DNA of 20,110 bases, taken from positions 192,701 through 212,810 of the forward strand of contig JBAYFY010000002.1 in the NCBI GenBank assembly GCA_041666945.1. Direction: 5' to 3'. The position numbers were made by a program, and so were the translations under genes. Shown here piece after piece: positions 17,536 to 20,110 of the stretch (position 1 is the stretch's first letter; every line of letters begins with the position of its first letter). This stretch comes from Candidatus Buchananbacteria bacterium (GTDB lineage Bacteria; Patescibacteriota; Patescibacteriia; 2-01-FULL-39-33). A model generated the notes under the pieces. It was not told where the DNA came from and did no database searches. It saw only the letters and a list, made by a program, of their open reading frames with translations.

Positions 17536-17763
17536 GTGAACAAAGTCAAAGGCGTGATCCATAATGAAGAACAAGGGGTTTGTATTCACTGCGGAGAAAT
17601 AGGATATCAAATCCATTACCATGACGGCGTCTGCCATCGTTGTTGGAAATTAGGCAAGCCCGGGAGATCCGAGGTAAAACATAAAACCCCTAAAATAATA
17701 ATGTGGGTATTATACGCTCTGGCTTTCGGCATACCGATCACGCTTGCTTGCTTGATCTTTTAA
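17536..17763 (+). CDS. Small zinc-ribbon protein with C-terminal transmembrane helix (75 aa, GTG start)
   Basis: An SD (AAAGGA) lies 6 nt before GTG 17536. The product contains CIHCGEIGYQIHYHDGVCHRCW (CxxC-x17-CxxC) and a KHKTPK ... IIMWVLYALAFGIPITLACLIF tail anchor. It has its own promoter and terminator. Confidence 0.5.
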   Translation: MNKVKGVIHNEEQGVCIHCGEIGYQIHYHDGVCHRCWKLGKPGRSEVKHKTPKIIMWVLYALAFGIPITLACLIF

Positions 17764-17813: not shown

Positions 17814-19439
17814 TTATTTTTTCAATCCTGCCTTGATCAAACCGAAAAATAAAGGGTGCGGCTGAAGCGGCCGGGACTTGAATTCCGGATGAAACTGCAC
17901 GCCGACAAAAAACGGATGCCGATCCTTGGGCAATTCAATAATCTCCGTCAGCTGGCCGTCCGGACTCATGCCGGAAAAAACCAATCCGTGTTCTTCCATT
18001 TTCTGCTTGTAAGCCAAATTGAACTCGTAGCGATGGCGATGCCGTTCGGATATTTCCGCCGCCTGATACAAATCCCTGACCAAACTCCCCTCTTGCAGAA
18101 CGCACGGGTAAGCGCCCAAGCGCATAGTGTTGCCGTATTGCTTGTTGGCCAACTTTTCGGCCTGCTCGGGAATAATATGGATAACCGCATTCAAGGTGTG
18201 CGGATTGATTTCGGTGGTATGCGCGTCAGTCAGACCGCAGACGTTTCTGGCGAATTCAATGGTCGCCAGTTGCATGCCGTAGCATAATCCCAGATAAGGG
18301 ATTTTATTCTCCCGCGCGAATCTGATAGCTTTGATTTTCCCCTCTATTCCCCGGCTGCCAAAGCCGCCCGGCACCACTAAACAATCGTAGGCCTTCAGCT
18401 CGCTTAACTTATCAGGTTCTTTTTCATATAAATCGGAATTAATCCATTCAATCGCCGGTTTGCGGTTATTATGCCAGGCCGCGAATTTTAAACTTTCAAT
18501 TACGGAAATATAAGCGTCGGACAGGATAAAATTCCCGCTTTCAAAATACTTGCCGACAATGCCGATTTTGACCGTTTCCGTTATGCCGCTTATCTTGTCC
18601 ACGAATGTTCGCCATTCCGTTAAATCTTGTTGACGCGGTTCCAGATTCAAAACCTTCAAGATCTTATTGCCCAAATCCTCTTTTTCAAAATTAACCGGAA
18701 TATCGTAAATACTGTCCACATCAGGCGCTGATACCACGTTTTCCGGACGAATATTGCAGAACAGGGCCAGTTTGGCGCGGCGCGGCTCGTCTACCGGATG
18801 GCTGGAACGGCACAAAAGAAAGTCCGGCTGGATGCCGACTTCATTGATGGCGCGCACTGCCATCTGCGTCGGCTTGGTTTTCATTTCCCCTATTTTGGAC
18901 GGCACCGGCAGATAACTAACCATGACAAAAGCCACATCGCCGGGGTGCTGGAACTTGAGCATTCTGGCCGCTTCCAAATACAAAACATTCTGGAACTCGC
19001 CGACTGTGCCGCCGATTTCAATAATGCTGATTTCCGCATCGGCTTTTTCCATCGCCCGATTAATGCGATCAATCACCTCGTAAGGGACGTGGGGCACCGC
19101 TTCCACGCACTTGCCGCCGTATTCCAAATTGCGTTCGCGATTAATCACCGACTGATAGACGCGGCCCGAAGTCATGTAGTTATCGCGATAAATATTTTGA
19201 TCCAGAAATCTTTCATAATTGCCGATGTCCTGGTCGGTCTCATCGCCGTCTTCAGTCACAAACACTTCGCCATGTTCTACGGGATTCATGGTGCCGGCGT
19301 CCACGTTAAGATAGGGATCGATTTTTAGGGCTGTAACTTTAAAACCTTTGGCCGCCAAAATTTTGCCAATGGAAGCCGTGGCCACTCCTTTGCCGACTCC
19401 CGACATTACTCCGCCCATGACGAAAATGTACTTGGACAT
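17814..19439 (-). CDS. pyrG: CTP synthase
   Basis: MSKYIFVMGGVMSGVGKGVATASIGKILAAKGFKVTALKIDPYLNVDAGTMNP is the canonical N-terminus. The glutamine amidotransferase Cys motif is GLCYGMQ, and the total length is 541 aa. Confidence 0.93.
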   Translation of the reverse strand: MSKYIFVMGGVMSGVGKGVATASIGKILAAKGFKVTALKIDPYLNVDAGTMNPVEHGEVFVTEDGDETDQDIGNYERFLDQNIYRDNYMTSGRVYQSVINRERNLEYGGKCVEAVPHVPYEVIDRINRAMEKADAEISIIEIGGTVGEFQNVLYLEAARMLKFQHPGDVAFVMVSYLPVPSKIGEMKTKPTQMAVRAINEVGIQPDFLLCRSSHPVDEPRRAKLALFCNIRPENVVSAPDVDSIYDIPVNFEKEDLGNKILKVLNLEPRQQDLTEWRTFVDKISGITETVKIGIVGKYFESGNFILSDAYISVIESLKFAAWHNNRKPAIEWINSDLYEKEPDKLSELKAYDCLVVPGGFGSRGIEGKIKAIRFARENKIPYLGLCYGMQLATIEFARNVCGLTDAHTTEINPHTLNAVIHIIPEQAEKLANKQYGNTMRLGAYPCVLQEGSLVRDLYQAAEISERHRHRYEFNLAYKQKMEEHGLVFSGMSPDGQLTEIIELPKDRHPFFVGVQFHPEFKSRPLQPHPLFFGLIKAGLKK

Positions 19440-19522
19440 AATTTATATCAATTAAAAGTTAAAAATATGGTTTAAATTTAAACAAAATTGTAATCCGCCG
19501 ACTAATGGAGTGGATAAAATCA

Positions 19523-19551
19523 TTGACAAAATATTTAATGTATGCTACAAT
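19523..19551 (+). promoter_or_regulatory. Sigma70 promoter (TTGACA-17-TACAAT) for the 19694 gene
   Basis: TTGACA at 19523-19528, a 17-nt spacer, and TACAAT at 19546-19551. The predicted leader is about 135 nt. Confidence 0.55.
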
Positions 19552-19596
19552 AGTATATTCTGATATTTGTCAGAAAGTACTGTAACAATAAACACA

Positions 19597-19646
19597 ATTT
19601 CGTCATTCCCGCGCACCTTGCCTGCCGGCAGGCAGGGGCGGGAATC
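19597..19646 (+). promoter_or_regulatory. GC-rich palindromic leader element in the 5' UTR of the 19694 gene
   Basis: ATTCCCGC gcaccttg CCTGCC GGCAGG caggg GCGGGAAT forms nested stems. An internal tandem GGCAGGCAGG gives alternative pairings. The element is preceded by ATTTCGTC, as at the 10836-10890 element. Confidence 0.35.
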
Positions 19647-19693
19647 CAACAACCTCTCCGTCATCAAAAAGAAAGGAAACATCATGCAACCTA

Positions 19694-20110
19694 TCAGTTA
19701 TTCAAGGCAGTGGAAGCTTACCGTTCGTTGGTCATTAATCGCCGGCATAACCGCCGGATTATTCTGGATCACCTGGTATCTGATTTATGGCTCGGTGCCG
19801 GTAACGGACAAGATATTGTGGCTTGCCAACGAGCAAGACCGAACCAGGGATGTTTTTCTTCAACTGCCAGTGGCGCTGTCGCGATGGTGGGATATCCCAT
19901 CCGCCATGTTGTGGTCAACTGTCATTATTGGGGTGATTAGTTTCACCTTAAGAAAAAAACCCGGCGAACAGTTTGATATCGGTGAACAGTTTTATCTCTA
20001 TGTCATTTTGTTAATCGCCGGTTCGTGTCTCGGTCTGAGCTTAGGTCTGGGCTTAGGTCTGGGCTTAGGTCTAAACGCCGGTTCGTGTCTCGCTCTGGGC
20101 GCTGGTCTGG
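19694..20110 (+). CDS. Membrane protein with C-terminal (Gly-Leu)n repeat, 5' part only (it continues past the window end)
   Basis: An SD (AAAGGAAAC) precedes ATG 19694. The frame is open to the window end and translates MQPISYSRQWKLTVRWSLIAGITAGLFWITWYLIYG...LYVILLIAGSCLGLSLGLGLGLGLGLNAGSCLALGAGL. This frame was missing from the ORF track, which listed the overlapping frame 19710-19940 instead. Confidence 0.5.
20014..20110 (+). repeat. In-frame tandem repeats: a 12-bp unit (GGTCTGGGCTTA) x ~3.5 nested in a ~60-bp duplication (CGCCGGTTCGTGTCTCG appears twice)
   Basis: The sequence reads ggtctgagcttaggtctgggcttaggtctgggcttaggtcta. The flanking motif cgccggttcgtgtctcg occurs at 20016-20032 and again at 20076-20092. 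Confidence 0.6.

Follow-up and report, generated by a model that had tools for sequence, protein, structure and literature searches.

The glycine- and leucine-coding repeat at the end of the window, the 20,110-nt stretch of a Candidatus Buchananbacteria contig analyzed in this study, is very probably the beginning of a C-terminal (Gly-Leu-x-x)n array in a small integral membrane protein, which belongs to an uncharacterised Patescibacteria family and whose array changes length in frame. The best-supported reading is that the array behaves as an in-frame coding VNTR inside a predicted membrane-embedded glycine zipper. The family has a three-part architecture consisting of an N-terminal domain of approximately 80 aa, the (Gly-Leu-x-x)n array, and a basic amphipathic tail. 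The family with the SRWWD domain and the GLxx array has itself not been described before, and the repeat is its ordinary feature; a limited literature search found no description of an SRWWD/GLxx family.

Tandem Repeats Finder detected a repeat with a period of 12, 3.4 copies, 96% matches, and the consensus GGTCTGGGCTTA (Table 1), in line with the roughly 3.5 copies counted in the initial annotation. Its score of 75 is the window maximum, and shuffling the whole window 100 times with dinucleotide composition preserved never gave a repeat with this score (best score, 65). The first copy, GGTCTGAGCTTA, has a single mismatch to GGTCTGGGCTTA. In the final 100 nt of the window, the codons TTA ATC GCC and GGT TCG TGT CTC precede the unit GGT CTG AGC TTA, which is followed by GGT CTG GGC TTA twice and then by GGT CTA AAC GCC, GGT TCG TGT CTC, GCT CTG GGC GCT, and GGT CTG G. 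The 17-mer CGCCGGTTCGTGTCTCG, which had been noted to recur 60 bp downstream, is present exactly at 20016–20032 and 20076–20092. It is enclosed in a 39-nt direct repeat with 85% identity and 60-nt spacing, which outlines a higher-order repeat.

The repeat is in frame in the plus-strand ORF starting from ATG 19684 and encodes ...LIAGSCLGLSLGLGLGLGLGLNAGSCLALGAGL, in keeping with the earlier description of an in-frame repeat in a membrane protein. Synonymous codons agree in register among the copies, including minor codons (P ~5e-4 by chance given the protein sequence). The minor codons reused in the copies are GGT and CTG, which account for 16% of the Gly codons and 17% of the Leu codons, respectively, in the window genes. 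This in-register reuse of minor codons indicates that the repeat is a DNA-level duplication and not an amino-acid pattern alone. The copies in the window are a recent DNA duplication, not a convergence on the amino-acid pattern; the recent tandem duplication previously proposed is thus borne out by both the codon register and the 60-bp higher-order copy. In-frame tandem repeats with high unit DNA identity, by which a coding VNTR is recognized, were found in the window (96%) and in the closest relative, L113 (100%). In the translated array, small residues occupy every fourth position (G113, G117, G121, G125, G129, G133, A137, and G141), and the motif (G/A/S)xxxGxxxG runs through eight consecutive units from G113 to G141. 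The imperfect 18-bp duplication in the linker upstream of the array is older than the 12-bp array copies.

Table 1 Features of the repeat gene and its upstream region, with positions counted from the first nucleotide of the window.
Feature	Position	Strand	Basis
Promoter-like site TTGACA-17 nt-TACAAT, with TG before the -10 hexamer, 11/12 matches	19523–19551	+	Putative, function inferred
GC-rich hairpin in the 5' untranslated region, AUUCCCGC...GCGGGAAU, inner stem CUUGCCUGCC/GGCAGGGG	19605–19645	+	Folding
Shine-Dalgarno-like AAGGAA, 5 nt upstream of ATG	19673–19678	+	Sequence inspection
Partial CDS of small membrane protein, 142 codons plus one base	19684–20110	+	Translation; 100% identical NCBI entry
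Conserved N-terminal domain: TM1, extracytoplasmic beta-hairpin loop, SRWWD motif, TM2	19684–19962	+	phmmer, profile, AlphaFold of homologue
Imperfect 18-bp in-frame tandem duplication (GEQFDI / GEQFYL) in the linker upstream of the array	19962–19997	+	Repeat finder, family D3, 83% identity
60-bp (5-unit, 20-aa) higher-order repeat, copy 1	20012–20050	+	Direct-repeat finder, family D1
Start of glycine-zipper array, ~8 visible 12-bp units	20020–20110	+	Sequence and translation
12-bp tandem repeat GGTCTGGGCTTA x 3.4, near-perfect (GLSL GLGL GLGL GL)	20032–20072	+	Tandem Repeats Finder
60-bp higher-order repeat, copy 2, holding the exact 17-mer, truncated at contig end	20072–20110	+	Family D1

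The frame from ATG 19684 encodes MQPISYSRQWKLTVRWSLIAGITAGLFWITWYLIYGSVPVTDKILWLANEQDRTRDVFLQLPVALSRWWDIPSAMLWSTVIIGVISFTLRKKPGEQFDIGEQFYLYVILLIAGSCLGLSLGLGLGLGLGLNAGSCLALGAGL and is open to the window end. Among 5.8 billion proteins searched, the 142-aa product has a 100% identical counterpart, the NCBI entry 'hypothetical protein WCT16_02355, partial [Candidatus Buchananbacteria bacterium]'. The identical length of 142 aa and the label 'partial' indicate that the source contig (212,810 nt) ends at the last base of the window. The continuation of the repeat past this base, put forward in the initial annotation, would lie outside the assembled sequence. Other reading frames for the repeat region were rejected: the remaining plus-strand frames and the single minus-strand frame that was translated hold stops, in the latter case after approximately 35 codons, and homology favours the plus strand.

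A phmmer search with the window protein yielded eight homologues of 164–216 aa (E = 1.7e-10 to 5.5e-3) from Patescibacteria MAGs and metagenomes. The homologues have the N-terminal 80–90 residues in common with the window protein, with invariant residues at W16, F27-W28, V38-P39, L61-P62, and S66-R-W-W69 (window numbering), and after this domain all eight carry a hydrophobic array of the type GLVSGLAFGLVSGLAFGLGFGM... In a search of 1.84 billion cluster representatives (50% identity), a profile of the N-terminal domain matched 675 at E <= 1e-3 and 359 at E <= 1e-10. The window protein, itself among the sequences from which this profile was built, has a score of 107 bits. It has both the N-terminal domain and the 12-bp-encoded array with Gly at every fourth position that characterize the family. 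A second profile search returned 88 proteins; every named one is a 'hypothetical protein' and none has a Pfam domain. Where organism names are given for family members, they are Patescibacteria, Buchananbacteria, or unclassified 'bacterium', and the family is confined to Patescibacteria wherever the source names the organism. Pfam and NCBIfam gave no match for the window protein and only sub-threshold, chance-level matches for full-length homologues. A PDB sequence search found no match to a family protein, and Foldseek found no specific fold match in PDB. A search of the window for a paralogue of the repeat gene was likewise negative. The window protein (19800–19850, plus strand) and L113 (590–650) share an insertion of approximately seven residues (ILWLANEQDRTRD / ILWLAGANGDHSKD) in the extracytoplasmic beta-hairpin loop, which is absent from the other aligned homologues.

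The periodicity of the array is a family-wide property. In the segment downstream of TM2 of 169 members, Gly-Gly pairs at lags of 4, 8, and 12 are 2.5–3.0 times as frequent as expected; those at spacings of 2, 6, and 10 are enriched approximately 1.5-fold, and those at odd lags occur at 0.18–0.29 of expectation. Leu (20%) and Gly (15%) are prominent in the composition of this segment, and the residue following Gly is Leu in 56% of cases. A basic C-terminal tail of the W-L-L-A-K type was found in 125 of 176 members by a loose pattern. At the DNA level, arrays with a 12-bp period lie 3' of the N-terminal domain in L108, L110, L111, L112, L114, L115, and L117; they comprise 5 to 22 units with a unit identity of 62–75%, and higher-order periods of 24, 36, 72, and 120 bp occur in family arrays. 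Every full-length homologue carries such an array. The apparent (Gly-Leu)n of the window is a GLGL variant of the GLGF unit common in the family. Between SRWWD and the tail lie 39 to 197 aa (median, 94) with a near-continuous spread, which is hard to reconcile with a constant number of membrane crossings.

The AlphaFold2 model of a full-length homologue (P0007), calculated with a 68-sequence alignment, has a mean pLDDT of 78.9. Its N-terminal domain (pLDDT ~90) consists of a helix (residues 3–30), a beta-hairpin (35–42/46–55), and a second helix (56–75), and the array forms two long antiparallel helices (83–130 and 133–185) with pLDDT values of 57–79. By the positive-inside rule, the basic N-terminus and tail and the charged linker that follows TM2 would all face the cytoplasm. 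The beta-hairpin loop would then be outside, and the array would lie in the membrane as one or several helical hairpins. On the basis of composition and this medium-confidence model, the array is predicted to be helical and membrane-embedded. The encoded array segment of the window is all hydrophobic, consisting of Gly, Leu, Ala, Ser, and Cys. The initial annotation had suggested that the repeat might belong to a surface-exposed protein; a segment of this composition, whose counterpart in P0007 is predicted to be helical and membrane-embedded, is not obviously exposed. The other option it offered, a low-complexity TM segment, comes nearest to the truth but understates a conserved family feature with a strict four-residue glycine period.

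Length changes of the array were observed directly between close relatives. L108 (NCBI MAG GCA_964493085.1) and L109 (JGI metagenome 3300077317) are 100% identical over 1066 aligned nt, and their sole difference is a 24-bp array unit present in three copies in L109 and two in L108; the protein allele with two copies (P0004) was recovered on four contigs. L118 and L119 are approximately 99% identical, with seven mismatches outside a poorly aligned start, and differ by one 60-bp array indel. L120 and L121 are approximately 97% identical and differ by a 48-bp array indel. Among protein pairs with N-termini at least 96% identical, the array length differs by 4, 5, 8, 11, 16, 20, or 25 aa. In the lineage of P0183, P0184, and P0186, the length change is a 25-aa duplication that goes beyond array units and takes in the charged linker along with the end of TM2 (SFLTKLKDKDDIL). 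All compared sequences are metagenome assemblies, in which a collapsed or expanded repeat could reflect assembly error, although arrays of 24–72 bp fit within one read and the two-copy allele P0004 came from four contigs. The comparison shows that family arrays gain and lose whole multiples of 12 bp in frame, and array length is therefore what changes fastest in the gene between close strains. Since the indels recur in separate homologue pairs, in-frame gain and loss is a property of the family. Copy-number variation is thereby established in homologues, and the window locus itself is represented by one sequence.

The closest relative, L113, shares with the window gene the loop insertion (ILWLA...) and the promoter. 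Its array contains approximately 3.5 copies of GCCGGTCTGGTC, after which GGTCTGGGCTTC (GLGF) occurs in at least 6.5 perfect copies; this latter unit stands where the window has GGTCTGGGCTTA (GLGL). The L113 contig (888 nt) also terminates within the array. The lineage holding the window has unusually young arrays. At approximately 640–660 of L113, a 1-nt insertion shifts the frame just upstream of LPFGISRWWD and so truncates the called protein (P0214). Read in the proper frame, the sequence goes on into the GLVA/GLGF array, and the insertion is either a sequencing error or the mark of a pseudogene.

Other copies of the window locus were sought by several routes. Exact-protein look-ups with the partial protein and with the neighbouring CTP synthase found no second copy. 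A scan of genome_contigs with the 17-mer gave 107 matching stretches; none of the 80 listed is from Buchananbacteria, and these 80 come from unrelated, mostly high-GC genomes and are apparently chance matches. A degenerate 29-mer spanning both copies of the 60-bp repeat had no match in metagenome_contigs, and a protein-guided locus search with the window protein recovered only four distant relatives with 36–44% identity. Many family members are on very short contigs (~0.5–2 kb) or are shorter than 130 aa. These short contigs and proteins suggest that the arrays often break short-read assemblies and truncate gene calls. In a crude screen for family proteins ending inside the array, the window protein was the only match.

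We propose the following course of events. Indels in the array would arise through replication slippage or unequal recombination, and the 3.4 near-perfect copies and the 60-bp duplicate in the window would represent a recent expansion by such indels. The contig probably stops at this point through the inability of a short-read assembler to resolve a longer or heterogeneous array. The array helices would be long and membrane-embedded, with GxxxG stripes packing tightly on each other or on other copies of the protein as in a glycine zipper. Gain or loss of four-residue units would then alter the helix length with the glycine face kept in register. The gene would be a stand-alone unit with its own strong promoter.

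Two classes of variable repeat loci provide the background for the alternative that the initial annotation had raised, a contingency locus. Simple-sequence contingency loci typically have units of 1–7 nt in many copies, and their expression is switched by frameshift or promoter spacing via slipped-strand mispairing. The Vsa and Vlp proteins of Mycoplasma and the streptococcal Alp proteins contain in-frame tandem DNA repeats with high unit identity, the copy number of which differs between close strains via slippage or recombination. The family array resembles the former as an intragenic tandem repeat prone to copy-number change, and the latter in being in frame and size-variable between close strains. 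However, the window unit is 12 nt, keeps the frame, and is present in just 3.4 copies, and while the repeats of Vsa, Vlp, and Alp are hydrophilic, surface-exposed, and much longer, those described here are 4 aa long, hydrophobic, and probably within the membrane.

A contingency locus in the strict sense would be a hypermutable tract kept by selection, through which a population would hold a surface or interface protein in many array lengths and so evade phage, host, or immune pressure. We consider this explanation unlikely. It has in its favour the in-frame array indels in three homologue pairs with 97–100% identical DNA and the near-perfect, young copies in the window and L113. The breaks of both of these contigs within the array could also reflect population heterogeneity, but are only suggestive. 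A hypermutable tract of short units in many copies is, however, not what the window displays with its 3.4 visible copies of a 12-nt unit, far below classical hypermutable tracts. Because the unit is a multiple of 3 nt inside an ORF, the frame cannot switch, which excludes on/off phase variation. The homologue indels of 24, 48, and 60 bp are likewise all in frame, and expression is not switched by copy number through frameshift or promoter spacing. The encoded segment, a hydrophobic predicted membrane helix, offers no obvious exposed epitope. Moreover, most family arrays are old and diverged in their units, and slow neutral turnover fits them equally well as selection. The part of the contingency proposal that stands is thus the in-frame length change of the equivalent array in homologues, and the part that falls is phase variation.

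An assembly artefact, in which the tandem copies derive from a de Bruijn-graph loop or a chimeric join, would suit the position of the repeat within 100 nt of the end of a 212,810-nt contig, as assemblers are least reliable at contig ends. This origin is very unlikely: the frame is open and the four-residue glycine register of the family is maintained, an independent assembly of a related organism (L113) has a nearly identical 12-bp unit at the equivalent position of the gene, and all full-length homologues bear such an array. The copy number in the window could nevertheless be wrong through assembly. Gly- and Leu-rich TM segments are common, but a chance low-complexity hydrophobic stretch with no shared ancestry or constraint is hardly credible in view of the shuffling result, the identical minor codons in register, the exact 17-mer at 60-nt spacing, and the conservation of the position and period of the array in hundreds of family clusters.

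The preferred reading, a coding VNTR within a predicted glycine zipper, was also compared with described membrane motifs. The transmembrane glycine zipper motif (G/A/S)xxxGxxxG is attributed to Kim et al. (2005, PNAS 102:14278) in PMC8890360, which puts known glycine zippers, as a rule, at about three units or fewer per single TM helix. The family arrays share with them a small residue at every fourth position in a hydrophobic segment, as seen in the lag-4 Gly period, and a predicted helical structure. They differ in having roughly 4 to more than 30 units, the number of which varies between strains, and greatly exceed in length the zippers for which structures are known. The nearest described analogue of the family array is calcyanin (ccyA) of cyanobacteria, which has a (GlyZip)3 region of unknown fold; its three repeats, fixed and conserved, are ~50 aa long and each have a Gly-Pro at the centre (PMC8890360). 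Both have a long apolar C-terminal array with a glycine or small residue and a hydrophobic residue every four positions, thought to be membrane-embedded (PMC8890360). In calcyanin the GlyZip region is the conserved part, whereas in the present family the array is variable in number and sequence and the N-terminal domain is conserved; the taxa and the N-terminal domains also differ. Judged by the published description of GlyZip (PMC8890360), the family arrays are of another kind, being variable in length with no conserved Gly-Pro.

The genomes of Patescibacteria are tiny, and a large part of the membrane proteome is unannotated; a family of 675 clusters with a clear architecture is now defined. 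In-frame length change among near-identical strains is concentrated in its glycine-zipper array. The family offers a concrete target for structural and topological studies of very long glycine zippers, a motif class without a known fold, as also in calcyanin. For practical work, such arrays appear to disrupt short-read assembly and truncate gene calls, and array length is a possible marker for strain typing. The window itself contributes a modest result, namely a recent expansion of a common family feature that is cut by the contig end. A further proposal, that the protein is an abundant CPR-restricted membrane protein whose count of glycine-zipper units is under selection and can be tuned rapidly, appears to us quite improbable. 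If it were true, in-frame slippage in a TM segment would set how long a membrane assembly is, or its oligomeric state, for instance in a pore, a scaffold, or a host-cell contact site, and contingency variation of the VNTR type would act on a membrane-embedded helix instead of an exposed epitope.

The repeat gene is divergent from pyrG (CTP synthase, 17814–19439, minus strand), and the other window genes examined are housekeeping genes encoding an SLT transglycosylase, a UvrC-like nuclease, TruB, a PfkB kinase, and PPDK. The search for a conserved gene neighbourhood was negative: the neighbours are unrelated housekeeping genes that differ at each locus examined, with SHMT/FolD, RNase HII/DnaE, YidC/methyltransferase, and LigD or MurB beside the homologues. 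Between the SLT transglycosylase gene and pyrG, a 75-aa ORF (17536–17763, plus strand) encodes a zinc-ribbon-like CxxC...CxxC pattern followed by a hydrophobic C-terminal segment; it is no more than a candidate gene and matches no Pfam family.

Upstream of the repeat gene, the promoter-like site has a counterpart in L113, in which TTGACA-17-TATAAT at 339–367 precedes the closest homologue in the same arrangement. A near-consensus sigma-70-type promoter and approximately 20 nt 3' of it are kept in the window and L113, the coding DNA of which is only ~65% identical. This retention of the promoter in both lineages suggests strong transcription of the gene. A strong GC-rich hairpin lies in AT-rich surroundings downstream of the promoter-like site and upstream of the start codon. 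The 143-nt fold containing it has a z-score of -3.46, and its core occurs once in the window. Rfam gave no credible match for 19300–20110, the hairpin included. The hairpin sequence is not kept in L113, the leader of which contains a short palindrome, GCTTGtaaaaGCAAGC, spotted by eye.
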